Assembly: GCA_963767125.1 (NCBI GenBank)
Contig: CAVYDB010000020.1
Span: 80,548 to 144,547 of the forward strand
DNA: 64,000 bases
Origin: an uncultured Bacteroidota bacterium
GTDB lineage: Bacteria > Bacteroidota > Bacteroidia > JABEUT01
Reading direction: 5' to 3'
This document shows, in pieces, positions 13,051-46,433 of the stretch (the stretch's first letter is position 1; each line of letters starts with the position of its first letter). The position numbers were made by a program, and so were the translations under genes. The notes below the pieces were generated by a model that saw only the letters and a list, made by a program, of their open reading frames with translations, was not told the origin of the DNA and ran no database searches.

Positions 13051-13075
13051 TTTTAATGTTTAAAATTAAAACGAC

Positions 13076-14071
13076 ATGAAAAAGTATATAGGCCTAATAA
13101 TAGGGTTGCTTCCGTTACTATCGTCAGCGCAATTAGTAATTAATAGCGGGGACTATGTGGTGATAAACGGGAGTGCAGCCAGCCCATCGGGTATGGTATT
13201 GACCAATGCTGCGACTACAGCGATTACCAATGCAAGCACGGGCTGGATTATCACTAACAATGATTATAGTTTTGTGCAGTGGAATATAGGAACAGGAACG
13301 GGGATATACCGTGTCCCGTTTGGTTATTCCACTACCGACTATCTTCTTTTAACGTTCCAGGTAACAGCGGCAGGCGTGGGGAATGGAGTAGTTAAATTCT
13401 CGAGTTATCATGGTTCCAATTGGGACAATGCAGCATACGAGCCTTCTGATGTTACTACGTTGAGTGACTTTGGAGCGGGGGACTATTCAGTAAATATGGT
13501 TGACCGGTTTTGGAATATAGATGCGAATAGCGGATATACGACCAAGCCGACGGTGAACATGAAGTTTAGCTATATCAATAGTGGTGCAGGAGCAGAAGTA
13601 TCGGCGCCGAATTATATAGTGAACAATGCGTTGATAGCCCAGCGTTTCAATTCCAGTTCGGATGTATGGGACGACTTTTTGGGAAGTACGGGGACTCAGC
13701 TGACATCGGGAAATGTAGCAACTGTTTCGAGCGGTTCGGTATCACCGGCCGATTTATTCCGTTCGTGGACAGTAGCGAATGATTCTAACCTGATAACAAA
13801 TGTTGGGGTAGTTTCTGTTGCATCATCCAATCTTACTATCTGGCCCAGTCCGGCTACCCAATGCATTAATGTAAAATTCGGAGCGGGGTTAAGTGGGGAT
13901 GCAGTAATAAGTGTGGTAAATGTAATAGGGCAGGAATTAATCAGGAAAAGCCAGTATATATCTACAGGTATGATACTTCCTATAGATATTTCCACGTTGC
14001 CGGCTGCGATGTATTTTATTCGGGTAAACACGGATAAAACGGAAACAGCCACTAAGTTTATCAAGCAGTAA
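13076..14071 (+). CDS. T9SS-sorted secreted protein, cassette gene B1
   Basis: 331 aa. Signal peptide MKKYIGLIIGLLPLLSSAQ. The last 80 aa or so fit the T9SS type A C-terminal sorting domain (LTIWPSPATQCINVKF..VISVVNVIGQEL..IDISTLPAAMYFIRV..KFIKQ). Confidence 0.85.
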   Translation: MKKYIGLIIGLLPLLSSAQLVINSGDYVVINGSAASPSGMVLTNAATTAITNASTGWIITNNDYSFVQWNIGTGTGIYRVPFGYSTTDYLLLTFQVTAAGVGNGVVKFSSYHGSNWDNAAYEPSDVTTLSDFGAGDYSVNMVDRFWNIDANSGYTTKPTVNMKFSYINSGAGAEVSAPNYIVNNALIAQRFNSSSDVWDDFLGSTGTQLTSGNVATVSSGSVSPADLFRSWTVANDSNLITNVGVVSVASSNLTIWPSPATQCINVKFGAGLSGDAVISVVNVIGQELIRKSQYISTGMILPIDISTLPAAMYFIRVNTDKTETATKFIKQ

Positions 14072-14094
14072 AGGAGAAAGAAATGAAAACTGAA

Positions 14095-14123
14095 AAGGAG
14101 GGAATAAACACCCTCCTTTTTTT
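14095..14123 (+). terminator. Rho-independent terminator of cassette 1
   Basis: AAGGAGGG-AATAAACA-CCCTCCTT followed by TTTTT. Confidence 0.7.
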
Positions 14124-14194
14124 ATTTCCGATAAGATAATATAAAATGTTCAAAAAAATAAAATGATAGTTGCGTTAAGGCATTAAAATTGTAT

Positions 14195-14202
14195 TATATT
14201 TG
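14195..14202 (+). promoter_or_regulatory. -7 box TATATTTG for cassette copy 2
   Basis: TAnnTTTG match 34 nt upstream of the ATG at 14236. Confidence 0.4.
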
Positions 14203-14235
14203 TATTCTAATTGTTTAACCCTAAAATTAATAACT

Positions 14236-15933
14236 ATGAGAACAAAAACTTTTTCTTCCCTGACAATGTTAGCAGCAGGCTTATTCGCCTTTACTGCAAC
14301 AGCCCTGCATGCACAGGTGGGTATTAATAATACCGCTGCAAACCCGGATGCTTCTGCCATACTTGACTTAAATACAGGTAATGCAGGTGTGAATAAAGGC
14401 TTTTTACCCCCACAGGTTGCTTTAACAAATGTTGCCACAGCAGCACCCGTTACTACTCCGGCTACAGGTCTTATTGTATATAGTACCGCTGCCCCTACAG
14501 GTGGTGACGGAACAGGATATTATTATTGGAATGGTACCGGGTGGGTAGGTTTGGCGGGAGGTTCCGCTGGAGCTATTGGAGGTTCCGGAGTTGATAATTA
14601 CGTTGCACGCTGGACTCCCAATGGAACTACATTGGGTACCGGCTTAATACAGGACAATGGCACCGGTGTAGGAGTAAATAGCGCACCTGTGGCTGGTAAC
14701 CTGGTGTATGCAAGCGGTACTACCGGTATAGCAGTTAATGGCACTTCTGATACCGGTGTAGCCGGGTATAGCGCCACTAACATGGGCGTTGTTGCATATT
14801 CTTTGCTAAACGATGGGGTTTGGGCTAATGCCGATTATGGTGGTGTTTATGGAAATGGGTATAACGGATACGGAGTTTGGGGACAAGATGGAATGGGCGA
14901 TGAGGCAATTTTAGCATGGGATTATTATGGAACCTATGGTTATGGTCTTTATTCAACAGGGGTAAACTATGGAGTTTACACTACTGCATCGGCAGCTGCC
15001 GGCGTAGGGGTTTATGCATCTGGCGATACAGCCATAAATGCCTATGGCAGTTGGAATGGAATAGATGCATATTCCGCTAATAACGATGGTATCTCAAGTA
15101 AAGGCCTCTGGGGCGGTGTATATGCATCGGGTGATAACTATGGGCTTTTTGGGTATGGTTCAAATTATGGAGGTATATTTGAAGATCCGAACGGCGATGA
15201 GGCTGTATTGGCATATAATTCTTCTGAACTTGGTATTTATTCTTATGGTTTAAGTTCCGGAGGTTACTTTGTCGATGGAAACTATGATGTAGCCACCAGT
15301 GGCGGAGATTATGCCTATATAGCTTATGGACCTTCTGCCGCAGGCGCTTATTTTGAAGATGATGCCGGCGATTATGTTTATGACGCGTATGCAGGATACT
15401 CAAATTTTGGTTCAGGACCGAAAAATACCATAGTAAAAGATCAAAGCGGACAATACCGTGCTATGTCTTGCCCCGAGGCGCCTGAAGTGCTGTTTCAAGA
15501 TTATGGTACATCCCAATTGGTAAATGGAAAAGTTCATATTGAGTTGGACAAAACGTTTGCTTATACTGTTTGCATTAATGAAAAGCACCCCCTTCGCGTT
15601 ATGGTTACCTTGAATGATGCTGATTGTAATGGAGTAGCAGTAATCAACAGGTCGGCTACAGGTTTTGATGTAGTGGAATTAGCTCATGGTACCTCCAATG
15701 CTTCATTTACGTATGAAGTGGTTGCCAACCGTGCCAATACAAAGACCCATAAAGGAGTAGCAAGAAATTATGCTGATATACGCTACAACGATGCTCCAGG
15801 ACCTTTGGCAAGACCAAAACAAGCCAGCAGTTTAACCCAAACCCCCAATAACCCAAACAGGAGTGAAGGGAAGCACTTTAGCATGACTGCAAAGCCAAAG
15901 CCAAGTCCTACCGCTACACAAGGTAAAAATTAG
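14236..15933 (+). CDS. Secreted Gly/Tyr-rich repeat protein, cassette gene A2
   Basis: Start moved to the ATG homologous to A1 (MRTKTFSSLTMLAAGLFAFTATALHA); the track ORF starts at 14200. Same N- and C-domains as A1, but a different and longer core (GVYGNGYNGYGVWGQDGMGDEAILAWDYYGTYGYGLYSTGVNYGVY...). Confidence 0.85.
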   Translation: MRTKTFSSLTMLAAGLFAFTATALHAQVGINNTAANPDASAILDLNTGNAGVNKGFLPPQVALTNVATAAPVTTPATGLIVYSTAAPTGGDGTGYYYWNGTGWVGLAGGSAGAIGGSGVDNYVARWTPNGTTLGTGLIQDNGTGVGVNSAPVAGNLVYASGTTGIAVNGTSDTGVAGYSATNMGVVAYSLLNDGVWANADYGGVYGNGYNGYGVWGQDGMGDEAILAWDYYGTYGYGLYSTGVNYGVYTTASAAAGVGVYASGDTAINAYGSWNGIDAYSANNDGISSKGLWGGVYASGDNYGLFGYGSNYGGIFEDPNGDEAVLAYNSSELGIYSYGLSSGGYFVDGNYDVATSGGDYAYIAYGPSAAGAYFEDDAGDYVYDAYAGYSNFGSGPKNTIVKDQSGQYRAMSCPEAPEVLFQDYGTSQLVNGKVHIELDKTFAYTVCINEKHPLRVMVTLNDADCNGVAVINRSATGFDVVELAHGTSNASFTYEVVANRANTKTHKGVARNYADIRYNDAPGPLARPKQASSLTQTPNNPNRSEGKHFSMTAKPKPSPTATQGKN

Positions 15934-15984
15934 TTTTTTGCCTATTAAAAGCAAAAATTAATGTAACCCATAAATTAAAACGAC

Positions 15985-16980
15985 ATGAAAAAGTATATAG
16001 GCCTAATAATAGGGTTGCTTCCGTTACTATCGTCAGCGCAATTAGTAATTAATAGCGGGGGCTATGTGGTAATAAACGGGAGTGCAGCCAGCCCATCGGG
16101 TATGGTATTGACCAATGCTGCGACTACAGCGATTACCAATGCAAGCACGGGCTGGATTATCACTAACAATGATTATAGTTTTGTGCAGTGGAATATAGGA
16201 ACCGGAACGGGGATATACCGTGTCCCGTTTGGTTATTCCACTACCGACTATCTTCTTTTAACGTTCCAGGTAACAGCGGCAGGCGTGGGGAATGGAGTAG
16301 TTAAATTCTCGAGTTATCATGGTTCCAATTGGGACAATGCAGCATACGAGCCTTCTGATGTTACTACGTTGAGTGACTTTGGAGCGGGGGACTATTCAGT
16401 AAATATGGTTGACCGGTTTTGGAATATAGATGCGAATAGCGGATATACAACCAAGCCGACGGTGAACATGAAGTTCAGCTATATCAATAGTGGTGCAGGA
16501 GCAGAAGTATCGGCGCCGAATTATATAGTGAACAATGCGTTGATAGCCCAGCGTTTCAATTCCAGTTCGGATGTATGGGACGACTTTTTGGGAAGTACAG
16601 GGACTCAGCTTACATCGGGAAATGTAGCAACTGTTTCGAGCGGTTCGGTATCACCGGCCGATTTATTCCGTTCGTGGACAGTAGCGAATGATTCTAACCT
16701 GATAACAAATGTTGGGGTAGTTTCTGTTGCATCATCCAATCTTACTATCTGGCCCAGTCCGGCTACCCAATGCATTAATGTAAAATTCGGAGCGGGGTTA
16801 AGGGGGGATGCAGTAATAAGTGTGGTAAATGTAATAGGGCAGGAATTAATCAGGAAAAGCCAGTATATATCTACAGGTATGATACTTCCTATAGATATTT
16901 CCACGTTGCCGGCTGCGATGTATTTTATTCGGGTAAACACGGATAAAACGGAAACAGCCACTAAGTTTATCAAGCAGTAA
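15985..16980 (+). CDS. T9SS-sorted secreted protein, cassette gene B2
   Basis: 331 aa. Differs from B1 at two residues (D26G, S->R in GAGL[S/R]GD). Same T9SS sorting domain. Confidence 0.85.
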   Translation: MKKYIGLIIGLLPLLSSAQLVINSGGYVVINGSAASPSGMVLTNAATTAITNASTGWIITNNDYSFVQWNIGTGTGIYRVPFGYSTTDYLLLTFQVTAAGVGNGVVKFSSYHGSNWDNAAYEPSDVTTLSDFGAGDYSVNMVDRFWNIDANSGYTTKPTVNMKFSYINSGAGAEVSAPNYIVNNALIAQRFNSSSDVWDDFLGSTGTQLTSGNVATVSSGSVSPADLFRSWTVANDSNLITNVGVVSVASSNLTIWPSPATQCINVKFGAGLRGDAVISVVNVIGQELIRKSQYISTGMILPIDISTLPAAMYFIRVNTDKTETATKFIKQ

Positions 16981-33966: not shown

Positions 33967-34016
33967 TATGCCGTTTCTTTCTCACCGGCTAAAATACAAC
34001 TTCTAAAATCTTAAAT

Positions 34017-34316
34017 TTACTCCACCTCATTCAGGTATGCCACAATACCCCCTTTCAGGTTATAGAGATTGGTATAGCCCATCCGTTGTTCCAGCATTTG
34101 TATAACGCTGGCAGAGCGCATTCCGGCTTTACAATGCACTACTACCTTTTTATCTTTTGAAATTTCATCGGCCCTTACCATCGTATCGCCCATAGGGATA
34201 TTAAGCCCTCCAATAGTGGCCTCTTCTACTTCCCAGGGTTCACGTACATCAATCAGTTGGAAATCATCTCCCGAAGCCATCATTTGTTTCAATTCTGTCG
34301 GGCTTACTTCTTTCAT
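34017..34316 (-). CDS. Rhodanese-like domain protein
   Basis: 99 aa. FQLIDVREPWE and active-site loop HCKAGMRSA. Confidence 0.85.
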   Translation of the reverse strand: MKEVSPTELKQMMASGDDFQLIDVREPWEVEEATIGGLNIPMGDTMVRADEISKDKKVVVHCKAGMRSASVIQMLEQRMGYTNLYNLKGGIVAYLNEVE

Positions 34317-34354
34317 GGATTTAGAAAACTTTACAGACTTTATAAACTTTCTTC

Positions 34355-35250
34355 TTAGTTATTGATAGCTTCCGCTCCGCCAACTATTTCTAATATTTCC
34401 TTGGTGATAGATGCCTGTCTTGCCTTATTATACGACAATTTAAGGCTTTTCAGCATTTCCTGGGCATTGTCGGTTGCTTTGTGCATGGCAGTCATACGGG
34501 CACCGTGTTCGCCTGCATAAGAGTCGAGCATAGAGCGATATACCCGCACTTTAAGAGCATAGGGTATCAGACTTTGGATAATCTCTTCTTTATTGGGTTC
34601 AAATATATAGTCAGGTTTCATGCCTTTAGTCACCGTTTGCTTAGCCGTGTCAGAAGCCTCAGCAGAAAATGGTAACAATTGCTCAACACTTAAAATTTGC
34701 GTAGCAGCATTTTTAAACTTGTTATACACTATTTCAACTCTATCTACTTGTCCGTCAGAATATAACTTTAATATTTCTCCGGCAAATTCAGCTACATTAT
34801 CATACGTAAGTTTATCCCAGAGTTCATTCCGGGAGGCAAGCATTTTAGAATTATTCTTTTTAAAATAATCGGCGCCTTTTTTACCAACACAAGCAAGGCT
34901 TACATTTCCTTTTCTTGCCTGTTCAGGATACTTTTCCCTGAATCAGCTGATTCACCGCTTTAATTACATTGGAGTTAAATCCTCCGCATAAGACCACGGT
35001 TGGAAGTAATAACAGCAATAACAACTTTTTCAGCCGGGCGGGTTTTGGCAAAGACACCGGCACTTGAACCTGCCGAAAGAATGAGGTTATCTAAGTATTT
35101 CTTTCAGTTTAGCTTCAAAAGGACGCATTTGAACAATGGCATCCTGGCCCTGCGCAACTTAGCTGCCGACACCATTTTCATGGCGCTGGTAATCTGTTGG
35201 GTAGAGATTACAGATGATATTCGTATGCGTACCTCTTTTAAATTTGGCAT
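34355..35250 (-). pseudogene. atpG: F-ATP synthase subunit gamma, multiple frameshifts
   Basis: ATG 35248-35250: [35 protein letters not shown], then frame changes. Pieces read [18 protein letters not shown] and VVIAVITSNRGL. The intact C-half is ORF 34355..34843 (…HGARMTAMHKATDNAQEMLKSLKLSYNKARQASITKEILEIVGGAEA). 896 nt. Confidence 0.85.
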
Positions 35251-35254
35251 ACTC

Positions 35255-36838
35255 TTATTTCTTATATTTTTTAGCTAAATCAGATGCAACTTTTTCAAGT
35301 GTAGCAACCACATCATCGGGTAGTTTACCTGCTTTCAATTCGGCTAATACATTTTTATGCTGTGCTTCTAATATCCCTAAATATTCTGTTTCAAATTCTT
35401 TTACTTTATCAAAGGAACATCCCTTAATAAGCCTTTAGTTCCGCAATAAATAATAGCAACTTGTTTTTCAACCGTCATCGGAGAATATTGGGCTTGTTTT
35501 AAGATTTCCACGTTACGTGAACCTTTATCAAGTACATATTTGGTAGCAGCATCAAGATCGGAACCGAATTTGGAGAAAGCTTCCAACTCACGGTATTGTG
35601 CCTGGTCAAGTTTCAAAGTACCGGCTACCTTTTTCATTGATTTAATCTGCGCATTACCACCCACACGCGATACCGAGATACCCACGTTAATAGCAGGGCG
35701 TACACCGGCGTTAAAGAGGTTGCTTTCCAAGAATATCTGTCCGTCGGTAATAGAAATAACGTTGGTAGGGATATATGCTGATACGTCACCTGCCTGTGTT
35801 TCAATAATAGGCAATGCTGTTAATGAACCACCGCCTTTTACCAAATGCTTTAATAGATGGAGGCAAGTCATTCATATTGCTTGCAACGCTCTGGTCAGCA
35901 TTAATTTTAGCAGCACGTTCTAATAAACGGGAGTGCAGATAAAATACATCACCCGGATATGCCTCACGTCCCGGAGGGCGGCGAATAAGAAGTGATACCT
36001 CACGGTAAGCTACAGCTTGTTTTGATAAATCATCATAAATAATCAAAGCAGGACTGCCTGTATCGCGGAAAAACTCGCCCATAGCAGCACCTGCAAAGTG
36101 GAGCAAAGAACTGCATAGGAGCAGGATCAGCAGCGCTGGCGCAAACAATAATAGTATATGCCATAGCGCCGTTTTCTTCCAGTGTACGTAATACGTTAGC
36201 AACGGTAGAGCTCTTTTGGCCGATGGCCACATAAATACAATATACAGGTTGTCCTTTTTCGTAAAATTCTTTTTGGTTGATGATGGTATCAATAGCAATA
36301 GCGGTTTTACCGGTTTGGCGGTCACCGATAATCAACTCACGTTGTCCGCGTCCGATTGGAATCATGGCATCAATAGGCTTTAATACCTGTTTGCAGTGGT
36401 TCGTTTACCGGCTGACGGTAAATTACACCCGGAGCTTTACGTTCCATAGGCATTTCATACAGTTTCGCCTGTAATAGGGCCTTTTCCGTCAATAGGATTG
36501 CCCAAGGCATCTACTACCCTGCCCAACAAACCTTCGCCTGCTTTAATGGAAGCAATTTTTCCGGTACGTTTTACGGTAGCACCTTCTTTAATATCTCCTG
36601 AAGGACCAAGTAATACAAGCCCTACGTTATCTTCTTCAAGGTTAAGGGCAATACCTTTTAATCCGTTTTCAAATTCTACAAGCTCTCCTGCCTGAACACT
36701 GTTCAATCCGAAAACACGGGCAATACCATCACCAATTTGCAGAACGGTTCCAATTTCTTCCAGTTCTGTTTCGGTTTTAAATCCTGATAATTGTTCGCGT
36801 AATATTGCAGATACTTCTGCCGGTTTTATTTCAGCCAT
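35255..36838 (-). pseudogene. atpA: F-ATP synthase subunit alpha, at least 5 single-base indels
   Basis: Pieces 36455..36838, 36033..36365 ([30 protein letters not shown]), 35801..36325 (…[29 protein letters not shown]), 35401..35871 ([36 protein letters not shown]) and a tail to the TAA at 35255-35257. Total 1584 nt. Confidence 0.9.
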
Positions 36839-36852
36839 GACTTTATTGATAA

Positions 36853-37409
36853 TTAATTAAGTATATACGATTGATTAAAGTTTTTATTCAGTTTTTTTAA
36901 TTGACTGAGAACACTCATATCTGCCTGGCGGTTTCCAACAGTCAATACAAATCCGCCAATGATTTTAGGGTCAATTTTTTCTTGCAATTCTATCTTCGAC
37001 TTTCAACATGTTGGTAAGAATATGGTAGTAAGTCTTTTGCGGGTAGCTATCATCTAATTTTACAGCCGATGTAATTACCACCGTAACAATCTTCATTTTA
37101 ATCTTATACTGGTCAATAAATTCGTGCAGCAATTTTTTCTAAATACGATTCTCTTTTGTTTTTGGTAAGAAGGGTTAAGAATTTAAAGGTAATATCTGTA
37201 TACATCATCCTTTAACAGAGCTTTTAGGGTACTTATTTTTTTGTCCGTCTTTATTAAAGGGCTTTGCAGCATAATTCTGAAATCGTTCACTTTCTGGCAA
37301 TATTTCAACAGCTTGTCATATCAGCATAAACCTCTTCCACTTTATCATTTTCGGTGGCAAGCTGAATCAGTGACTTGGCGTAACGGTATGCTATGGTTGA
37401 ATTAGCCAT
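36853..37409 (-). pseudogene. atpH: F-ATP synthase subunit delta, multiple frameshifts
   Basis: Starts MANSTIAYRYAKSLIQLATENDKVEEVYADM (ATG 37407-37409) and ends …DPKIIGGFVLTVGNRQADMSVLSQLKKLNKNF… (stop 36853-36855). The middle is broken, and no ORF of 60 aa or more is in the track. 557 nt. Confidence 0.75.
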
Positions 37410-37411
37410 TT

Positions 37412-37441
37412 GAGAGTTATGAGTTATGAGTTATAAGTTTT
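37412..37441. repeat. Tandem heptamer repeat (GAGTTAT)n in the atpF-atpH spacer
   Basis: GAGAGTTAT-GAGTTAT-GAGTTAT-AAGTTTT. Confidence 0.7.
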
Positions 37442-37464
37442 GCCATATTATCTGTTCGTTATCC

Positions 37465-37962
37465 CTAATTCAAATTAACTTCATCTAACAGGGTATTAAC
37501 CAATGCTTTTTGTTTTTCATCGGAAGATAGTTCAGTTTTGATAATTTTCTCTGCAATTTCAATGGATAGCTTGGCTACCTGGTTTTTCAGTTCGTCCATA
37601 GCAGCAGCTTTTTCACTTTGAATATTCTCCCTTGCATTTTGCATAATCTTATCCGCTTCTTTCTGGGCTCCGGCTTTCGCTTCTGCAATAATGCTTTCTT
37701 TAGTTTCTCTTGCTTCTTTTAACAGTTTATCTCTTTCATTGCGGGCTTCCATTAAAATTGCTTCGTTGCTGGCTTGCAAGGGCTGCCATTTCTTCTTTTG
37801 CTTTTTCAGCGGAATCAAGGGCATCCTGAATAGATTTTTCCCTGTCTTTTAAAGCTCCTAAGAATAGGTTTCCATGCCATTTTGCGCAATAAGAAGGAAC
37901 ACAATCAGAAAGGTGAGTGTCATCCAAAATATAAGTCCGATTGAAGGTAGTATAAGATCCAT
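37465..37962 (-). pseudogene. atpF: F-ATP synthase subunit b, two opposite frameshifts
   Basis: MDLILPSIGLIFWMTLTFLIVFLLIA (ATG 37960-37962), then WHGNLFLGALKDREKSIQDALDSAEKAKEEMAAL in the frame of ORF 37736..37927, then NEAILMEARNERDKLLKEA... in ORF 37465..37824. 498 nt. Confidence 0.85.
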
Positions 37963-37965
37963 TTT

Positions 37966-38000
37966 GAGTTATAAGTTATGAGTTATAAGTTATTGTTATT
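37966..38000. repeat. Tandem heptamer repeat (RAGTTAT)n in the atpE-atpF spacer
   Basis: GAGTTAT-AAGTTAT-GAGTTAT-AAGTTAT-TGTTATT. Confidence 0.7.
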
Positions 38001-38101
38001 ATCGTTTAATTAATTCATTTATTCGTTATTCTTAATTTTCAATCGTAATGAAACCCCGGAGACCAACCAACCGTTGAAGTCTCCGGAGTTCAAAATAGCC
38101 A

Positions 38102-38369
38102 TTACTTGATCAACAATACCAACAATCCGATTACCATACCGAAGAAGGAAGTTCCTTCAACGAAAGCGATGGCAAGAATCATGTTTGTACGTAAATCAGC
38201 CATAATTTCAGGTTGGCGAGCCATTGATTCCAGTCCGTCCGCTGCCAATTTGTCCGACACCGATACCGGCGCCGAGAGCAGCTAAGCCGGCGCCAACTGC
38301 GCCAAGACCATAACCAATACCAATATTTGATCCTGAAGATGCTACGTCTAATAACACTGATGATAACAT
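38102..38369 (-). pseudogene. atpE: F-ATP synthase subunit c, one frameshift
   Basis: MLSSVLLDVASSGSNIGIGYGLGAVGAGLAALGAGIGVGQIGS, then a shift. The other frame gives …LESMARQPEIMADLRTNMILAIAFVEGTSFFGMVIGLLVLLIK, with the stop at 38102-38104. 268 nt. Confidence 0.85.
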
Positions 38370-38379
38370 AATTGATAAT

Positions 38380-39435
38380 TTATTTAAAGTTAAAGAATCC
38401 ATGATTTAGTGATGTTCTGTCTTCTTCGGTTGCCATTCCGAAATAAATTGCCGATAAAAGAGTAAACACATAAGCTTGTATAAGTGAAACTAATAACATC
38501 AAGCAGCAAGCATACCTACTGAAAAAGCCACCGAAAATACAGAAGTTGCATATCCGGCAAAATGTCCCCATAAGCCTCCAAAGATGAATATAAGACTGAA
38601 AGAAGGAAAGAGCTACAATATGCCCTGCAAGCATATTGGCAAATATCCGAATCAGCAGGGTGAAGGGCTTTAAAATAATACCCAAGGTTTCAATAGGGCC
38701 AAGAATCAAATATTTTAACCCAGGCAGGAACACCGGGCATCCATAAGGTATGAGACCAGTAAGTATTTGCCCGAATAAACCATCATTGGTATAAAGGTAA
38801 AGAAAGCAAGGGTCAATGGTGATAGCAATGTTACCTGTAACGTTAGCCCCTCCGGGGAAGAATGGAATCAAGCCCTAACATATTCAGCAACAGGATAAAG
38901 AAGAACAGCGTAAGCAGGTAGGGCATGAACTTTTCATATTTATGTTTGCCAATACATGGGATGGCAAAATCATCGCGAATAAATACGATAATAGGTTCAA
39001 AAAAAGATTGTATTCCTTTGGGAGCACTTAACCCACCGTTGCTGATATGCTTTGGCAACACCCAACATCAATATTAATAAGCAATAACCCCGACAATACA
39101 ATGGTACAGGCGATTTTAGTAAGTGAAAAATCCCAGAGTTTAGCGGTTTCTTCCTTATTTATTGAACCATCGGCGTTAACAGCTACAATATGCTGACCGT
39201 TCATTTTGTAGCCATTATACATGGCTCCGTCATTCAGTTTATTGGAACAGAATACAGAAAGCCCGTGGTTTTGAGAATACAATATAATAGGAAGCGGGAT
39301 AGAAAGATCGCCTGCAATATGCCAGCTATGAGAATCGCTTACGTGCTCTAATATCATATCTCCTGCATTGAATGCCTTGCCTGTTTCTTCTGCAGCAAAA
39401 ACAACCGAAGGAATGGCAAAAAGCAACGCAACCAT
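38380..39435 (-). pseudogene. atpB: F-ATP synthase subunit a, frameshifted
   Basis: Pieces 39028..39435 (signal-like N-part with a periplasmic extension), 38843..39061 and 38380..38871 (…LLIRIFANMLAGHIV…LIQAYVFTLLSAIYFGMA). The exact 3' end is uncertain; an alternative frame ends …TEHH. Confidence 0.8.
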
Positions 39436-39550
39436 TAAAAATAGTTTCTTAATCTTGAAATATATTTAAAATCAGTCACTTATATGCTTATTTAGGGTGC
39501 TTTTTAACTCGCTTTTTTTCAAAATCGCTGCAAATATAGAATATTTCTGC

Positions 39551-39709
39551 ATCTTCATTTTAAGACTGTGAATAAGTTTTGATAAAAGAGGAGAACAGTT
39601 TCTCGCCAAGACGCAAAGGCGCGAAGGAAATACATTATTACTTTGCGGGCTTGGCGTCTTTGCGAGACCCGAATTTCCTAATCTTCAGCTTAAGAGTCTG
39701 AATAAGTTT
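39551..39709 (+). repeat. Structured intergenic element: direct repeats flanking an inverted repeat
   Basis: DR ATCTTCATTTTAAGACTGTGAATAAGTTT (39551-39579) and ATCTTCAGCTTAAGAGTCTGAATAAGTTT (39681-39709). Between them is IR TCTCGCCAAGACGC (39601-) / GCGTCTTTGCGAGA (-39667). Core TTTCCTTCGCGCC.TTTGC and AGCCCGCAAAGT recur inverted at 41865-41991. Confidence 0.65.
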
Positions 39710-39775
39710 AAAATGGGGAGTTGAGAATGAGAGCCGGTAGCAAAGTTTTTAATAACTTTGTTTTTTGTTTTGGAT

Positions 39776-39982
39776 ATGGATAACATACAAAATATTCTAC
39801 AGTTAAGTACGGCAGAGAGACTGCTGTTACTGGGAGAACTGTGGAACAGTATCCCCACAGATGAAATTAAAATAAGGGATTCTCATATAAAGGAACTTGA
39901 TAAAAGGCTATCTCGTATGGAACGCGGTGAGACCCGGTTTTTTACGTGGGATGAGGTGAAGAAGAACCTTCATTCAAAATGA
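39776..39982 (+). CDS. Putative addiction-module antitoxin component (TIGR02574-like)
   Basis: MDNIQNILQLSTAERLLLLGELWNSIP...HIKELDKRLSRMERGETRFFTWDEVKKNL. The LS..ERl.L...lW.Sl and W.evk pattern is typical of this small antitoxin family. Confidence 0.7.
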   Translation: MDNIQNILQLSTAERLLLLGELWNSIPTDEIKIRDSHIKELDKRLSRMERGETRFFTWDEVKKNLHSK

Positions 39983-40068
39983 AAATTAATCTCTCTGTTA
40001 GCAATGAGCAAAGTCATGCTGAACTTGGTTCAGCATCGCAAATTTCTATTATTGGATTTCCTCTATGA
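39979..40068 (+). pseudogene. Truncated remnant of the cognate ParE/RelE-like toxin
   Basis: ATGA overlap with the antitoxin stop. The frame opens MKINLSVSNEQ (compare MKI.fS..A..dL of ParE-type toxins) but runs only 29 codons, into a palindromic repeat and the 3' end of the convergent helicase gene. Confidence 0.4.
40016..40036. terminator. Palindrome ATGCTGAAC-TTG-GTTCAGCAT between convergent genes
   Basis: Perfect 9-bp stem 13 nt beyond the helicase stop (40049). It belongs to the GTCATGCTGAAC...-type short palindromic repeat class seen elsewhere in the window. Confidence 0.4.
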
Positions 40069-41605
40069 ATTTTGATGTTTTGCCATTATATTTCTTTTTC
40101 CAATGTATATATTTGAACTGTCCCATGTCAGCTTTGTTACTTTTTAAATCAGAACCACTCCACTCTACAGTAGAGACTAAATATAATTCTTTCATGGCTC
40201 TTGTCATACCTACAAATAAGAGCCTCCTTTGTGCTTCGATGGTGTCTATTCCAAATGTCTCATTGGGTAATATCCCTTGAACAAGACCATTAATGATAAC
40301 ATATTCAGCCTGTAGCCCCTTAGATTTGTGAATTGACATGAGATTTATCTTACCCTTTTCAAATTCGTTATTGACTCTTATCTCATTTGTTAAGTTTATA
40401 ACACTTCTTTCAACGTCAGATTCATCAATATACTCCACTATATAACTAAATTCACTATATTTCTGCATAAACTCTTTAATTGAAATTGGAGAAACAACTA
40501 AGGTTGTAAATTCTTTCGGAAGAATATCAAACTTAAATATTTCCCGAATAATAACTGATTCTTTAAACCCTATATGAAAAGATTCGCTTAATAAATTAAT
40601 AAGTCTCTTATTATTATGTTTACCGTAGTATTTAAGAAGAAATAATAAGAATGGTAGCTTTATCTTGCCATAAATAACATTTAGCCACCATATCTTACAT
40701 AGAGTATCCATATCCCATTTTTTACTCCAACAGTCGACATAATCTTGACCCTTCTCATCCATTAGTTTTTTGAGATCATTCACTACAAAACCAATACTAC
40801 TTAGTATGAGGATACTACCCTGTTTATCAAGCTCTCTAATGGACTTAATAATAGATAATATATAATTATCACAGTCTATTTGTGTCGATAATTGTTCAAT
40901 AGATAATGAGCCATCCTTATTTGATTTTTTCCATTCTTTCGGTATTCTCTTTTTATTTTTTTGTAAAAGTTTACTGCAATAATCAACTATTTCATCAGGG
41001 CATCGATAACAAATATTATCGTGTTCAATTTTTTCTATTTTTTCATTCTGATAAAGTGAGATTATTCCATCAGGTGCGGCATCTTTAAATCCATAGATGG
41101 ATTGATCATCATCTCCTAAAATAATCGTTTCAGAGGCGATTTCAGATATAAGCATTATTAGTTTTTGCTCGTCAGAATTGAAATCTTGAAATTCATCGAC
41201 CAAAAACAAGTCCAACTCACCTATCTTATCTTTAGCGTAGGCTTTGTTCGCTTTAATAAAAGACACACAACTTGCAATCATTGCTTCATACGTAATACAT
41301 TGTAAATATTCACATATTGTTGCAAAATCAATGTCCAATTTTTTTGCAAAATATTCTAAAGTTTCTTTTTCAGGTTTATTATCAAGTACATGTAAATTAG
41401 GCAAATGATTCATCATAAACGCGAAGCTATGTAACGTTGAGCAGGAAACTCTTTTATCATCTGCAAAATCCTTTAACAAGTCCTTTATTGTTGCATTAGT
41501 AAATGAAAGCACTTGAATTTTTTTTGCTTCAGAATAATCTGAGGCAATTATCCTTTTTATCTTCGTTGTTTTGCCAGTTCCTGGTCCTGCAAGTAAAATT
41601 TTCAT
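40049..41605 (-). CDS. Compact stand-alone SF1 UvrD/Rep-like helicase
   Basis: 518 aa, starting directly at Walker A (MKILLAGPGTGKTTK). Motifs: Ia LSFTNATIKDL, II LFLVDEFQDFN, III IILGDDDQSIYGFKDA, IV ICYRCPDEIV, V LMSIHKSKGLQAEYVIINGL, VI EAQRRLLFVGMTRAMKELYL. No extra nuclease or other domain is evident. A hand count of a 100-nt sample gives about 27 percent GC, versus about 47 percent in lpdA. Confidence 0.85.
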   Translation of the reverse strand: MKILLAGPGTGKTTKIKRIIASDYSEAKKIQVLSFTNATIKDLLKDFADDKRVSCSTLHSFAFMMNHLPNLHVLDNKPEKETLEYFAKKLDIDFATICEYLQCITYEAMIASCVSFIKANKAYAKDKIGELDLFLVDEFQDFNSDEQKLIMLISEIASETIILGDDDQSIYGFKDAAPDGIISLYQNEKIEKIEHDNICYRCPDEIVDYCSKLLQKNKKRIPKEWKKSNKDGSLSIEQLSTQIDCDNYILSIIKSIRELDKQGSILILSSIGFVVNDLKKLMDEKGQDYVDCWSKKWDMDTLCKIWWLNVIYGKIKLPFLLFLLKYYGKHNNKRLINLLSESFHIGFKESVIIREIFKFDILPKEFTTLVVSPISIKEFMQKYSEFSYIVEYIDESDVERSVINLTNEIRVNNEFEKGKINLMSIHKSKGLQAEYVIINGLVQGILPNETFGIDTIEAQRRLLFVGMTRAMKELYLVSTVEWSGSDLKSNKADMGQFKYIHWKKKYNGKTSKFIEEIQ

Positions 41606-41676
41606 TTGATAAAAATAGGTAAAATATACAATCCAAATTAAGGGATGGAATAGTTTTTATTCCTATCATATGCATT

Positions 41677-41856
41677 ATGACCTTTAAAGAGAAATACAAG
41701 AAATTCCAAAACCTGAACTATGTTGTCAATATGATAACTAAATCAGTGTATGATACCATGCACCTTGAGGGACAGGGTTTACCAGAAGCTGAGATAAAGG
41801 AGCTTGTTAAGAAAGTGATGGCAGAGCCAGAGCCTACTTTACGAGTTCCTTTGTAA
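41677..41856 (+). CDS. VbhA-like small antitoxin ORF (59 aa, below the track cutoff)
   Basis: MTFKEKYKKFQNLNYVVNMITKSVYDTMHLEGQGLPEAEIKELVKKVMAEPEPTLRVPL. TMHLEG fits the [S/T]xxxE[G/N] Fic-inhibitory helix motif, and the context resembles VbhA (ALASQRLEGLEPDPQVV). Divergent from the helicase start (71-nt spacer). Confidence 0.45.
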   Translation: MTFKEKYKKFQNLNYVVNMITKSVYDTMHLEGQGLPEAEIKELVKKVMAEPEPTLRVPL

Positions 41857-41864
41857 GTATATTT

Positions 41865-41991
41865 TCTTTGCGTGCTTTCCTTCGCGCCCTTTGCCTGAAC
41901 CTGTGTTTAAATCCCAAAGTCTTCACGCCCGTCCGAAAGGTCATCCGGGCAGGCAAAGAACGCTAAGAAACAGCCCGCAAAGTTCGCCAAG
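41865..41991 (-). repeat. Inverted copies of the left-flank repeat families
   Basis: TTCTTTGCGTGCTTTCCTTCGCGCCCTTTGCC (41865-41896) and CACGCCCGTCCGAAAGGTCATCCGGGCAGG...CAGCCCGCAAAGTTCGCCAAG (41925-41991) match the reverse complements of 39601-39667 and 33903-33966. Confidence 0.55.
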
Positions 41992-42160
41992 TAAAAGCCA
42001 TACTGATTTAGAAAGTTACTTGAATACCAAAACCTTATCTTCTTCCCCAAAACCCAATGACTAAAAACCGAAGTAAACTGCTAACATAATGTAGCTCAAT
42101 ATAGTATACTTTCTATTCGTACCTTATAATCTGTGAATCTGTGGCTTACCTCCCAAAAAA

Positions 42161-42330
42161 GTGCCACACATATACCAGGCAAGTGCATAGCAACTTATAT
42201 GTCACTCCTGAAAAAAGTAGATAAAATGGCTGTAATAAATTGAATGTCTGCTTATAAGGTGGCTTAAATTGCATTTTAAAATACCGCTGAAAAGGTGATA
42301 TAAGAGGTTTTCAAATTTTTGGGAAATTTG
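42161..42330 (+). ncRNA. Unclassified ~165-nt noncoding element, copy 1 (sRNA or MITE-like)
   Basis: Homologous to 61257..61415 in the same orientation. Shared blocks are GCCAC.CAT, TTATATGTCACTCC (14/14), GAAAAGTA.ATAA.ATG.CTGTAA.AAAT, and ATAAGAG.TTTTCA.AATTT..GGGAAA. Indels break every reading frame. Confidence 0.4.
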
Positions 42331-42404
42331 TAAGACAGGTTTTAGCTTATACGGCGACTTCAGGATAAAATTTTACTAATTTCGCAACTCTATAAATTTT
42401 AAAT

Positions 42405-43790
42405 ATGACTTACGATTTAATAGTAATAGGCAGTGGTCCGGGAGGATATGTGGCTGCCATCAGGGCATCACAACTGGGCATGAAAGTGGGTATTGTAGAG
42501 CGTACCGAATTAGGCGGTATATGCCTTAACTGGGGCTGTATCCCTACCAAAGCCCTGCTAAAAAGTGCACAGGTATTTGAATACCTTAAACATTCCCAAG
42601 ACTACGGGTTCAAGGTGAGTGGCGCTGAAGCCGATTTCCCGGCAGTGGTAAAACGCAGTCGTAATGTGGCAGACGGGATGAGCAAAGGGGTTCAGTTCCT
42701 GATGAAAAAAAATAAGATAGATGTTATAAAAGGTTCGGGTAAGCTAAAAGCAGACAAAAAAGTGGAGGTTACCGAAGGCGGGAAAGCCACTATGTATGAG
42801 GCTAAGAACATTATAGTAGCGGTAGGGGCAAGGTCAAGAGAGTTGCCTAACCTGAAAATTGACGGCAAGAAAATAATAGGATACCGGGAGGCTATGGTAT
42901 TGCCTGTTATTCCAAAGTCTATGGTGATAGTAGGTTCAGGAGCTATAGGCTCAGAGTTTGCTTACTTTTATGCTACTATGGGAACCAAGGTTACTTTGGT
43001 GGAGATGTTACCCAATATTGTTCCGGTGGAAGATGAGGAAGTATCTAAAACCTTGCTAAGGTCATTTGCTAAATTAGGGATTGATATACGTACCGAAGCA
43101 TCTGTTCAAAGTGTTGATATTAGCGGCACTGGCTGCAAGGTGAAAATAAAAGACGCTAAAGCCGAGACTACGATTGAGTGTGATATTGTTTTATCAGCAG
43201 TAGGTATTGCTTCAAACCTTGAAAATATTGGTTTGGAAGATATAGGTGTGATTACCGACCGGGGAAAAATTGTGGTGAATCCTTTTTACCAGACCAATAT
43301 ACCCGGCATTCATGCCATTGGCGATTGCGTAGGCGGACAAGCCCTGGCACACGTAGCCAGCGCAGAAGGAATTGTTTGCGTGGAGAAAATGGCAGGTCAA
43401 AACCCGGAGCCGATTAATTACAATAATATCCCGGGATGTACCTATTGCCAGCCTGAAATAGCATCGGTGGGATATACCGAAAAAGCAGCTAAAGCGGCGG
43501 GATATGAACTTAAGATTGGAAAATTTCCTTTCTCCGCATCTGGCAAAGCAAGCGCTGCCGGCGCTAAAGACGGATTTGTAAAATTGATTTTTGATGCCAA
43601 ATATGGCGAGTTCCTCGGAGCGCACATGATTGGCTACAACGTCACTGAACTCATTGCCGAATGTGTGGTAGCACGCAAGCTGGAAACTACGGGGCATGAA
43701 TTGATTAAATCTGTTCATCCTCACCCTACCATGAGTGAAGCCATTATGGAAGCTGCTGCGGCCGCTTACGGGGAAGTAATACATTTATAA
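42405..43790 (+). CDS. lpdA: Dihydrolipoyl dehydrogenase
   Basis: 461 aa. FAD motif VIGSGPGGYVAA, redox-active GGICLNWGCIPTK, NAD motif VGSGAIGSEFA, and C-terminal HPHPTMSE. Confidence 0.95.
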   Translation: MTYDLIVIGSGPGGYVAAIRASQLGMKVGIVERTELGGICLNWGCIPTKALLKSAQVFEYLKHSQDYGFKVSGAEADFPAVVKRSRNVADGMSKGVQFLMKKNKIDVIKGSGKLKADKKVEVTEGGKATMYEAKNIIVAVGARSRELPNLKIDGKKIIGYREAMVLPVIPKSMVIVGSGAIGSEFAYFYATMGTKVTLVEMLPNIVPVEDEEVSKTLLRSFAKLGIDIRTEASVQSVDISGTGCKVKIKDAKAETTIECDIVLSAVGIASNLENIGLEDIGVITDRGKIVVNPFYQTNIPGIHAIGDCVGGQALAHVASAEGIVCVEKMAGQNPEPINYNNIPGCTYCQPEIASVGYTEKAAKAAGYELKIGKFPFSASGKASAAGAKDGFVKLIFDAKYGEFLGAHMIGYNVTELIAECVVARKLETTGHELIKSVHPHPTMSEAIMEAAAAAYGEVIHL

Positions 43791-43810
43791 CAGAAAAGTA
43801 AATTTTCCCA

Positions 43811-44578
43811 ATGAATCCAGGTAAAAAGGTATTTCTATCTGCTATAATTTTATTATCAGCGATAAGTGGTTTCGCGCAAAGCGATGCGGAGCTTTTTAAG
43901 ACAGCTACAAATCTCAGGATGAAAGGCAAATTCCATGAAGCGCTTACTATTTTTAAATCACTTTTAAGTAAAGACTCTAATAATACTGCCTATTTAGACT
44001 ATGTGTCTGTACTTACCTGCAAAACCCTGCATGATGATGCTCCGCCCGATAACCCTCCGGTAGATAAGTACAGGCACTGTGAATATTTGGCAAAAAAATC
44101 GCTTAAGTTGGATAGCACTAATGCTGAATCACATTATGCTTATGCTTTTTCCATTGCAGTAATAAGCGAATATGCAAGCCATAAGCAACAAATTTCCATT
44201 GCCGGGATAATGAAAAAGGAATTAGATAAAACCCTCAAGTTAAATCCTCACCATGCAGGAGCTTATCATTTGCTGGGTCGCTGGCTTGATAAGCTGGCAG
44301 GCTTTAATTCCGTGGAAAAACTGGCCGTAAAAGTGCTTTATGGTACTTCCCTGCCCGAAGGCACGTATGCCCAGGCGGCGGCAGCTTATGAGAAAGCAAT
44401 TTTATATGAGCCTGATTATATTTTGCACCAATATGAGCTTGCCACCATCTATATTAAAATGGATAAAAAAGCCGATGCAAAAGTTTGGCTGCAAAATGCC
44501 CTCAACTCACCTTATGCCGGTGATGATGCAGAGCAAGTGAAGGCTAAATGCCGCAAGGTGCTGAGTGACTTAAAATAA
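43811..44578 (+). CDS. Secreted TPR-like helical-repeat protein
   Basis: 255 aa. Signal peptide and helical repeats (KGKFHEALTIFKSLLSKDSNN..., AHHLLGRW..., YAQAAAAYEKAILYEPDY...). Confidence 0.6.
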   Translation: MNPGKKVFLSAIILLSAISGFAQSDAELFKTATNLRMKGKFHEALTIFKSLLSKDSNNTAYLDYVSVLTCKTLHDDAPPDNPPVDKYRHCEYLAKKSLKLDSTNAESHYAYAFSIAVISEYASHKQQISIAGIMKKELDKTLKLNPHHAGAYHLLGRWLDKLAGFNSVEKLAVKVLYGTSLPEGTYAQAAAAYEKAILYEPDYILHQYELATIYIKMDKKADAKVWLQNALNSPYAGDDAEQVKAKCRKVLSDLK

Positions 44579-44648
44579 GGGGAGTCCGATTATGTGATAG
44601 ATCTCTCCTACCTATTCTTCAAAATAACTCCATTGCTCTATTCTATCC

Positions 44649-45635
44649 CTATCGCTCATTCAAGATTTTAAATAGCTCGCTAAGTTTTGGAGTGAGAATA
44701 ATATCTGTTCGCCTGTTTTTCTGTCTTGCTTCTCTTGTTTTAGCGGGGTCAACAGGTTCATATTCGCTTACACCGGAAGCCATTAGCCGGGTGGGGTCAA
44801 TTTTAGCATCATTCAATAGAATTTTCACGATGGATGTAGCCCTCATAACACTCAAATCCCAATTATCTTTAATTTCTCCGGAGCCATGCATAGGCACATC
44901 ATCGGTATGGCCTTCAACCATCACGTTTATATCCTGGTCAGATTCCAGCGCCTGGGCAAGTTTGTTCAATGCTTCAATACCCTCCGGCTGAACCTTGGTA
45001 CTTCCGCTTGGGAACAACAAAGCCTCTTCCATCGATACATAAACTTTCCCGTTTTTCTCATAAACTGAAATGCCTTTACCTGCAAACCCAAGTAAGGCAT
45101 CGCTGATTCTTTTTTTCAGGGAATCGATGGCAGCATCTTTGCTTTTTAAAATGCCCTCCAATTCGTTCACTCTTTTTTCGCGCTGTTGTAATCTTGCTGT
45201 AAGTGAATCGAGATGTTTTTTCTCCGCATTCAACTGGTCTTCTTTTTCCAATAGCTCAGATTGGGTCATCTGTAACTGACCTGAAAGTTGTTTATTGTTT
45301 GCATCATTCCCGTTTTTCAGTTGATTGTAGTTACCCTGCAATTCCCGGTTGTTGGAAGTAAGTTGCCCATATTGGTCTGCCAGCTTTCGATAATTATAAC
45401 CGGACTCCGAAGTATCCTGAGCCAGGTCAGAAACTTCTTTCTGCAATAACCCCAGTTTAGCCTCCAGCTCAGTCTTTCTCATTTCGCAGGAATCATCTGC
45501 AGCCTTGGTAGCGGCAAGCTGTGCTTCGCAAGCCTTTCTTTTATTTTGTTCTTCGGTAAGTTTACTGGCAGGTACGCAGGAATAAAATCCAATTACTACA
45601 CCTGTAAAGCCTATGGAAATAAGAGATAGTTTCAT
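44649..45635 (-). CDS. OmpA-family lipoprotein with a long coiled coil
   Basis: 328 aa. Lipobox GFYSC, a coiled-coil N-half, and a C-terminal OmpA domain (VEGHTDDVP...NWDLSVMRATSIVKIL...NRRTDIILTPK). Confidence 0.85.
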   Translation of the reverse strand: MKLSLISIGFTGVVIGFYSCVPASKLTEEQNKRKACEAQLAATKAADDSCEMRKTELEAKLGLLQKEVSDLAQDTSESGYNYRKLADQYGQLTSNNRELQGNYNQLKNGNDANNKQLSGQLQMTQSELLEKEDQLNAEKKHLDSLTARLQQREKRVNELEGILKSKDAAIDSLKKRISDALLGFAGKGISVYEKNGKVYVSMEEALLFPSGSTKVQPEGIEALNKLAQALESDQDINVMVEGHTDDVPMHGSGEIKDNWDLSVMRATSIVKILLNDAKIDPTRLMASGVSEYEPVDPAKTREARQKNRRTDIILTPKLSELFKILNER

Positions 45636-45663
45636 AAAAAATATAGTTAAGAGAATCTAATAT

Positions 45664-45873
45664 CTATTTCTGCCCTTTAGTAGTATCCGTTTTAGCAGCA
45701 TCCACGGAATCCTGCCTGTGCATCATTTTTGCAGCATTTAATAGGGAATCCCTTTGTGAAGCGGCAGCCATAGAGTCTGCTTTCTGCTTTGTTGCTTCTT
45801 TATCAGAAGAGCCTGAATTGCATCCGGCTATAAAAAGGCAGGGAATGGCGAGTAAAATAAGTATTGATTTCAT
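45664..45873 (-). CDS. Small lipoprotein (hypothetical)
   Basis: 69 aa. Lipobox FIAGCNS. Hydrophilic. Confidence 0.5.
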   Translation of the reverse strand: MKSILILLAIPCLFIAGCNSGSSDKEATKQKADSMAAASQRDSLLNAAKMMHRQDSVDAAKTDTTKGQK

Positions 45874-46001
45874 GCGAGTTTTGTTTATTCTGCAAAATTA
45901 CCAACAACAAATCTGGTATAATTGGGTTACAGAAAAACTTATTAACATGAGAGCGGTAAACAATAAACTTCTCAACAGGAATATTTCTCTATGTTCATAG
46001 C

Positions 46002-46433
46002 TTATCGTTCATAGTTACTCAACGCTTCATTCTCTTTCTCCCTCATCTCTTTTTTCTCGGCAGGCTTTTTGTCGCCATATCCACATAAATGAAATACGCC
46101 ATGAATGATAGTGCGTTGTAATTCCTTTTCAAAAGGTTCTTTGTAAGTAGCAGCATTCTCTTTGACCCGCTCTATACTGATAAAAATCTCTCCATCTATT
46201 TTTTCATTTTGAGAATAATCGAAAGTAATAATATCTGTATAAAAATCGTGCTTGAGAAATTGGCGGTTAATTTCCAATAGAAAATCATCAGAACAAAAAA
46301 CAAAAGAAAGATTGCCTGGAATTTTGCCTTCTTCTTTCAGGATTTTTTTAATCCAGTTCCGTATCGTATTTTCTTTTTGAAATGAGAAATCAAGGTTCCC
46401 TTCTATGCGGAATTTAATTTCAGATTTGGGCAC
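46002..46433 (-). CDS. ybeY: rRNA maturation endoribonuclease YbeY
   Basis: 143 aa (GTG start). Zinc motif HGVFHLCGYGD. Confidence 0.9.
   Translation of the reverse strand: MPKSEIKFRIEGNLDFSFQKENTIRNWIKKILKEEGKIPGNLSFVFCSDDFLLEINRQFLKHDFYTDIITFDYSQNEKIDGEIFISIERVKENAATYKEPFEKELQRTIIHGVFHLCGYGDKKPAEKKEMREKENEALSNYER

Follow-up and report, generated by a model that had tools for sequence, protein, structure and literature searches.

The described systems closest to the locus considered here are the defense system Gabija, the UvrD, Rep and PcrA helicases, the ParDE-like type II toxin–antitoxin (TA) operons, the VbhT–VbhA and FicT–FicA pairs of Fic toxin and inhibitor, and the repetitive extragenic palindromic (REP) and REPIN elements. 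The locus itself is the spacer that separates atpB, which starts at 39435 on the minus strand, from lpdA, which starts at 42405 on the plus strand, in a 64,000-nucleotide stretch of DNA from an uncultured Bacteroidota bacterium (assembly GCA_963767125.1, contig CAVYDB010000020.1, positions 80,548 to 144,547), hereafter the window, and its largest gene encodes a UvrD-like helicase. In Gabija, GajB is described as sensing DNA ends and hydrolyzing (d)ATP and (d)GTP to support GajA, with dATP and dGTP as its preferred nucleotides, and the two proteins as forming a supramolecular complex with nucleotide-sensing nuclease activity. Inhibition of Fic proteins is associated with the motif (S/T)xxxE(G/N) (PMC5651007).

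Set against these systems, the locus adds new members to known kinds of element: a UvrD-like helicase of a family seen in defense neighborhoods, orphan antitoxins, and REPIN-like palindromes. We propose, with a probability of roughly 0.6, that the spacer is a small site of accretion and decay for horizontally acquired genes, as opposed to one coherent, new or complete defense system. The four open reading frames (ORFs) that a preliminary description of this DNA had placed between atpB and lpdA were all found, as follows.

39776..39982, plus strand: solo 68-amino-acid antitoxin, PF09720 Unstab_antitox / TIGR02574 (profile matches)
39979..40068, plus strand: 29-codon ORF in the place of the missing toxin, with an ATGA overlap with the antitoxin stop (ORF call)
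40049..41605, minus strand: intact, compact 518-amino-acid superfamily 1A (SF1A) helicase of the UvrD/Rep/PcrA fold, all helicase motifs kept, 30.6% GC (domains, alignment, model)
41677..41856, plus strand: solo 59-amino-acid protein of a small Bacteroidota family, with the Fic-inhibitory motif TMHLEG (family alignment, motif)

The three accessory genes, encoding the antitoxin, the helicase and the 59-amino-acid protein (orf59), have different relatives in each case, and homology to those relatives breaks at every gene border; for this reason stepwise accretion and deletion is favored over a single insertion. The earlier impression of TA debris was essentially right, as both antitoxin-type genes stand without the toxins that are present in their relatives. 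An independent short-read contig (L001, run ERR11630394; comparison sequences are labeled L plus a number throughout) matches positions 39526–41990 at 100% identity and confirms the order atpB, antitoxin, helicase, orf59. ORF, domain and tRNA scans found no transposase, integrase or tRNA within the block or beside it, and tRNA, promoter and terminator scans of the locus returned nothing informative.

The composition of the spacer sets the helicase gene apart. The intervening 2,969 bases contain 33.2% GC, and the lowest-GC 1.5-kb stretch of the entire window is the helicase ORF (30.6%, against a mean of 39.4% with a standard deviation of 2.7; z = −3.3), in which GC at third codon positions falls to 26%. 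The preliminary description had arrived by hand count at about 27% GC for the helicase and about 47% for the start of lpdA, and sliding windows of 300 nucleotides agree, with a minimum of 27.7% at 40450–40749 versus 48.3% at 42400–42699, where lpdA starts. Its wider view of an AT-rich foreign block holds for the helicase gene but not for the block as a whole, in which the antitoxin and orf59 each have 38% GC, near the window average. The helicase gene is also more AT-rich than its own flanks in 15 of 17 related loci, by a mean of 4.6 points.

A scan of 185,579 species representatives for lpdA gave 80 relatives, the best of them 81% identical at the amino acid level (an uncultured Bacteroidia) and that of Pedobacter 77% identical. 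Within 10 kb of lpdA, none of these 80 loci (0/80) contains the helicase, the antitoxin, orf59 or atpB, and the atp–lpdA junction is therefore lineage-specific. The proposed comparison of atpB–lpdA synteny, intended to define an empty site and the insertion borders, recovered neither from these 80 relatives. Nevertheless, the foreign origin claimed for the helicase is well supported by its outlying composition and patchy phylogeny, together with its AT-richness relative to flanking DNA and its absence from the lpdA loci of relatives.

The assignment of the gene as a UvrD-like helicase is borne out by Pfam matches to UvrD-helicase (8e-19), UvrD_C (8.5e-18) and AAA_19 (1.3e-15), with UvrD_C_2 matched as well. 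An AlphaFold2 model based on a 28-sequence alignment (predicted local distance difference test, pLDDT, 87.4; predicted template modeling score, pTM, 0.81) presents the SF1A fold with subdomains 1A, 1B, 2A, and 2B. The top Foldseek matches of this model are UvrD, Rep, and PcrA, with template modeling (TM) scores of 0.73–0.78 (2IS1, 2IS2, 3PJR), and the comparison with UvrD chain 2IS1_A gives an E value of 2.7e-24 and a TM score of 0.76. Within the 28-member family alignment, which has a mean column identity of 60%, the window helicase retains every invariant column, including Walker A GPGTGKT, DEFQD, GDDDQS, R201, and R469, and the gene consequently appears functional. This four-subdomain fold and full set of helicase motifs, both held in common with UvrD, Rep, and PcrA, make a 3′–5′ single-stranded DNA (ssDNA) translocase mechanism the default inference. 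Unlike those enzymes, the window helicase is 130–200 residues shorter, lies far under the NCBIfam equivalog thresholds (Rep 109 bits versus 951, PcrA 100 versus 911, UvrD 92 versus 1144), and belongs to a family that is horizontally scattered, AT-rich, and located in defense-type neighborhoods. A sub-threshold Rfam match to RF03531, the Clostridioides difficile “sRNA included into helicase gene”, was also seen on the minus strand at 40164–40252 (33 bits against a gathering threshold of 65); as the matched stretch falls within the conserved C-terminal helicase motifs, the match most likely reflects similarity of coding sequence and not an RNA gene.

The resemblance to Gabija is partial. Like GajB, the window protein is a UvrD-like superfamily 1 helicase of about 500 amino acids, and its best PADLOC profiles are GajB models (2.6e-42, partial coverage), which qualifies it as a GajB-type component; a model of a reverse transcriptase (RT)-associated helicase, RTasHel, is also among the top matches. 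In addition, one family member (L185) lies directly downstream of an AAA_21/AAA_15+OLD-TOPRIM gene, in the manner of gajA–gajB. Conversely, the window locus has neither GajA nor another nuclease, most relatives also lack one, and the window helicase is nearer to UvrD, Rep, and PcrA than to Bacillus cereus GajB, which ranks only 33rd among the structural matches to the model, with a TM score of 0.35. Because there is no GajA at the locus, it does not belong to Gabija. No nuclease partner (GajA or other) or remnant of one was found between 39.4 and 42.4 kb, the ORFs at 41.6–42.4 kb, upstream of the helicase, giving Pfam matches at chance level only, and our literature searches turned up no description of stand-alone GajB-like helicases.

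A word-index protein search with the helicase returned 5,892 proteins at E ≤ 1e-5, the best non-self match being 63% identical. Among the matches listed, the relatives are mostly about 511–541 amino acids long and define a family of approximately 515 residues; those that are named come from Chitinophagaceae, Edwardsbacteria, Chloroflexota, Bacteroidales, Lutibacter, and Dadabacteria, spanning phyla at 45–63% identity. We took a census of neighboring genes at 21 related helicase loci with flanks, three of them obtained by exact look-up and 18 by scanning a metagenome collection. Type I restriction–modification (R-M) operons house the helicase in 6 of the 21 (L182, L183, L184, L190, L191, L195), and an OLD/GajA-like gene adjoins it in two: in L185 this gene is immediately upstream on the same strand, a Gabija-like layout, and in L180 an AAA_15+OLD-TOPRIM gene is downstream. 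Elsewhere the helicase adjoins an Mrr_cat endonuclease (L171), a HARE-HTH protein (L173), or a DUF4238 protein (L174), is followed by an Abi_C protein (L005 and L182), or has Shedu SduA_C proteins nearby (L005 and L008). The defense-island flavor attributed to the locus is thus upheld by this census at the level of the helicase family, but not for the spacer itself, which is 2.9 kb long and offers one intact candidate and no partner.

The family is also distinctive in where it does not occur. No member was found in the 72,556 plasmids of PLSDB at E ≤ 1e-20, in IMG/VR (best match 26% identity, E 8e-24), or, with the exception of one 24.5% match, in the 50,697 phage records of INPHARED. The closest helicase relatives have no flanking DNA in common with the window, and a repeat finder applied to the loci of relatives detected no inverted repeats flanking the gene. 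On sequence evidence, the family is horizontally mobile, chromosome-borne, accessory, and associated with defense neighborhoods.

Two of the relatives allow the edges of a helicase unit to be seen. L003 (6916–8602) and L256 (5921–7605) carry the same unit in different neighborhoods, with about 85 nucleotides upstream and about 50 downstream of the gene, at 75.7% identity. The common unit opens with ACGTTGTACGTCATGC and closes with GCACGAACGTACAAC, which are inverted cores, and the flanks terminate in GTTGTACGT/ACGTACAAC cores in inverted orientation, beyond which comes an attC-like palindrome. Approximately 190 nucleotides of palindromic DNA come after the unit, ending in GGCAATACCT..CGTT(A/G)T; in L003 the same string is present ahead of the gene as well. 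These edges resemble the boundary of an integron-type attC cassette. Flanks of this type are missing from the window copy of the helicase, and no attC-type core sites were found, as read by eye, at the palindromes of the window.

The antitoxin call in the preliminary description proved accurate. The protein starts at the ATG at 39776 and matches both PF09720 (1.2e-14) and TIGR02574 (40.5 bits against a cut-off of 31.9), and it is 82% identical to the antitoxins of intact type II ParDE-like pairs. In these relatives (L261–L264), the gene for a 101-amino-acid ParE toxin starts three bases later, and the same antitoxin–ParE pairing is seen on annotated cyanobacterial plasmids. At the window locus, the ATGA start/stop overlap typical of such operons is present, but the ParE/RelE toxin gene of about 100 codons that should lie directly downstream is missing, with 29 unverifiable codons instead. 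DNA homology to the intact TA loci runs from about 39710, immediately right of the second of two direct repeats described below, to the antitoxin stop, and then ends. The 29-codon ORF had been presented as a stub of the toxin, a view that could not be confirmed: it has no family match in Pfam, NCBIfam, or further profile searches, and its similarity to three ParE N-termini is not above that of shuffled sequences (p = 0.07–0.77). The toxin of the 68-amino-acid antitoxin is gone; that the 29 codons are its remnant is unproven.

The 59-amino-acid protein belongs to a small family, with 11 representatives found at E ≤ 1e-3 in a search of 1.84 billion proteins and 39 clusters in a larger collection, all of about 57–62 amino acids. 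The segment SVYxTMxLE[GDNE]Q is conserved across the family, and its glutamate is invariant. In the window protein, TMHLEG at residues 27–32 fits the Fic-inhibitory motif, E31 being the invariant residue and the S/T position being occupied accordingly in 11 of 12 members. In this respect, and as a helical protein of about 60 residues, it is like VbhA and FicA, and its relatives also pair with Fic proteins devoid of an inhibitory motif. Relatives with 88% and 71% identity are encoded convergently with genes for Fic proteins of 194–196 amino acids, the 3′ ends overlapping by 15–21 bases (paired loci L269 69–821, L271 5001–5750, and L272–L274), and the partner Fic proteins carry HPFxNGNGRTAR without an internal inhibitory motif, which is the definition of class I.

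Nonetheless, the earlier label of a VbhA-like ORF is only partly sustained. No Pfam, NCBIfam, or PDB match was found for the protein, the family profile did not match the VbhA chains in the PDB, and hhalign with VbhA gave a probability of 0.1%, so there is no detectable sequence or profile homology; the motif and the gene neighborhood of relatives speak for the label. The arrangement differs too, as the relatives’ gene is convergent with and overlaps the 3′ end of the Fic gene, unlike an inhibitor gene upstream in one operon. No Fic gene is present at the window locus: tblastn of the whole window, with two of the partner Fic proteins as queries, detected neither gene nor remnant, including near 41.8–42.4 kb, and window DNA homology to L269 spans 41677–41836 only. 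We consider orf59 to be the second solo antitoxin-type gene of the spacer, with a putative function that is backed by motif and neighborhood and not by VbhA homology. With both toxins missing, neither antitoxin-type gene forms part of a complete TA system. The small protein has no annotation in any source, and convergent, overlapping genes are an unusual arrangement for a Fic toxin with its inhibitor.

The remaining features of the spacer are repeats and palindromes.

39543..39579, plus strand: left copy of a 37-nucleotide direct repeat, core TTAAGACTGTGAATAAGTTT at 39560–39579 (repeat search)
39602..39666, no strand: imperfect palindrome, REPIN-like hairpin, with arms at 39602–39630 and 39640–39666 that consist of tandem CGCNAAG octamers
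39673..39709, plus strand: right copy of the 37-nucleotide direct repeat, 81% identical to the left copy (repeat search)
40016..40036, no strand: hairpin with a perfect 9-bp stem (ATGCTGAAC-TTG-GTTCAGCAT; sequence read directly)
41866..41983, no strand: second imperfect palindrome with CGCNAAG-type words (fold z = −2.8), contig L001 ending at 41990 just outside it

The left-hand structure of direct repeats around an inverted repeat is as first described. The direct-repeat core (39560–39579 and 39690–39709) flanks the hairpin and has two matches in 64 kb against 0.02 expected, and the region 39540–39720 folds better than shuffled sequences (z = −4.2). CGCNAAG octamer pairs occur three times in the window against 0.09 expected. 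The preliminary description further held that the block is bracketed by inverted copies of the same repeats, and here the result is divided. Both sides do share words, a 16-mer (94%) and a 12-mer (100%), for which the chance expectations in the window are 0.04 and 0.21. However, the words stand in the order A,B on left and right alike, where a true inverted pair would have A,B on one side and B′,A′ on the other; global alignment of the left side with the reverse complement of the right shows nothing past the words, and each side forms its own palindrome. Because the words are in the same order and the remainder is unaligned, the two elements are not the terminal inverted repeats of one unit. 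They resemble REP/REPIN elements as intergenic imperfect palindromes of 65–120 nucleotides built from a repeated short word and folding better than shuffles, but only two copies are present in 64 kb, both inside the block, and Rfam gave no credible match to them or to the rest of the locus.

Runs of three CTTTGCG/CGCAAAG-type octamers were also seen between genes in unrelated Bacteroidota (L005 6338–6352, L039 17411–17425, L081 4428–4442), one run lying just upstream of lpdA in Aquiflexum, and these appear to represent a lineage-wide intergenic motif. The small hairpin at 40016–40036 sits between the convergent antitoxin and helicase genes, in the junction zone past the end of the TA-locus homology; it is possibly a bidirectional terminator, although the terminator scan did not call it. 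On the right, short-read contig L001 breaks off at 41990 and L002 begins at 42141, leaving between them the sequence just beyond the right palindrome, a gap that is compatible with a repeated element there without proving it.

Several observations weigh against reading the spacer as an accretion-and-decay site for horizontally acquired, defense-associated genes. No empty site was found, so that the term “insertion” derives from composition and phylogenetic patchiness alone. By sequence, the match of the helicase to B. cereus GajB is weak (E 2e-6). The closest relatives, at 57–63% identity (L003, L250, L256), are singletons amid unrelated housekeeping genes, and the defense context is strongest in more distant relatives, at 39–45% identity. 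The putative link of the family to defense comes from gene neighborhoods, and the analysis covered 64 kb of the genome.

Among the other explanations, it is conceivable, if unlikely, that the helicase represents the remaining half of a two- or multi-gene system, Gabija-like or R-M-linked, intact but now useless, whose partner was deleted along with the neighboring toxins. The truncated surroundings, from which the ParE and Fic toxins have gone, would fit such a relic, as would the family members that sit next to an OLD/GajA-like gene (L185, L180) or within R-M operons. Against this, the ORF retains all invariant residues of the family, no nuclease remnant is seen among the ORFs of 41.6–42.4 kb, and the status of the closest relatives as singletons in unrelated neighborhoods suggests that what is retained is the gene by itself. 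The proposal in the preliminary description, that a single mobile cassette with inverted repeat copies at its ends was inserted whole beside atpB, we regard as improbable. The three accessory genes do lie exactly between the two palindromic elements, the 16- and 12-nucleotide common words exceed chance, and direct repeats surround the left element. Yet the order of the words is not that of an inverted pair, the two elements do not align outside them, each element is palindromic by itself, similar octamer arrays exist in intergenic regions of unrelated Bacteroidota, no transposase, integrase, or tRNA occurs in the block or its flanks, and the relatives differ gene by gene, with homology stopping at gene borders.

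There is little to favor a helicase that serves a mobile element, either a plasmid or an integrative element, in its replication or transfer, with the locus as the remnant of that element. One relative (L197) is beside a TraG/TrwB coupling protein, another (L253) comes after an integrase and a YobI-type ATPase, and TA genes are typical cargo of such elements; the block, however, contains no replication, integration, or transfer genes, and the plasmid and phage searches reported above stand against this explanation, as the family was not found in plasmids at E ≤ 1e-20 and the best viral matches reached only 24.5–26% identity. Least probable is that the gene is simply the Rep/UvrD/PcrA orthologue of its lineage. 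Among solved structures, these enzymes are its closest matches in both sequence and structure, but scores of 92–109 bits against cut-offs of 911–1144, a length of 518 amino acids against about 650–750, the extreme AT-richness of the gene, and the patchy distribution with variable defense-type neighbors all contradict it. A housekeeping identity, which the preliminary description had listed as an outcome that would refute its reading, is itself effectively refuted by score, length, AT-richness, and patchy spread.

Within the accretion-and-decay model, the fold and motifs suggest that the helicase would act as an ATP-driven 3′–5′ ssDNA translocase or unwinder on invading DNA ends or replication intermediates. 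From its neighborhoods, it may work by itself or may cooperate in trans with a nuclease or R-M system whose genes lie elsewhere in the genome. As for the solo antitoxins, they could persist either as relics or as immunity to incoming ParE or Fic toxins, and the palindromes are plausibly recombination-prone, terminator-like intergenic elements and not the ends of a mobile cassette.

Two further observations concern the rest of the window. Left of the spacer, in the atp operon (34000–39525, minus strand), all atp genes are in short ORFs, with atpA in four pieces, atpB in three, and atpE split. Contig L001 has an intact atpB of 339 amino acids, and the window differs from this contig at 125 sites, none of them to the right of 39525. 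In atpB these include 106 substitutions, 65 of them at third codon positions, which look like a diverged functional allele, and 11 single-base insertions, all on the window side, which look like consensus error; on the other side of the spacer, window positions 42141–46266 match L002 at 99.9% identity and show no indels. Over the conserved atp operon, the window contig is probably a mosaic or a poorly polished consensus, with a strain-level recombination break at the island edge as the alternative to an assembly mosaic. At 11383–16980, a two-gene unit is tandemly duplicated, with ORFs of 555/577 and 331/331 amino acids and signal-peptide-like N-termini; the duplicated 331-amino-acid genes are 99.2% identical over 1,009 bases, and the upstream genes just 74–86% in parts.

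As it stands, the locus is an ordinary case of accessory genes accumulating and decaying at a Bacteroidota synteny breakpoint. The 59-amino-acid family apparently constitutes an unannotated family of Fic inhibitors, with an unusual convergent and overlapping gene arrangement. Chiefly, the locus points to an uncharacterized but highly conserved helicase family that recurs in type I R-M and defense neighborhoods, usually without the OLD nuclease of Gabija. We can offer only tentatively, and with more doubt than belief, the suggestion that this family of about 515 residues could work on its own as a one-gene module against phages or plasmids, or as a portable plug-in for host nucleases or R-M systems that moves as a single-gene cassette. 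If so, the neighboring solo antitoxins would be kept as immunity to incoming ParE and Fic toxins, and should such helicases protect alone or boost unrelated systems, they would represent a missing entry in defense catalogues.

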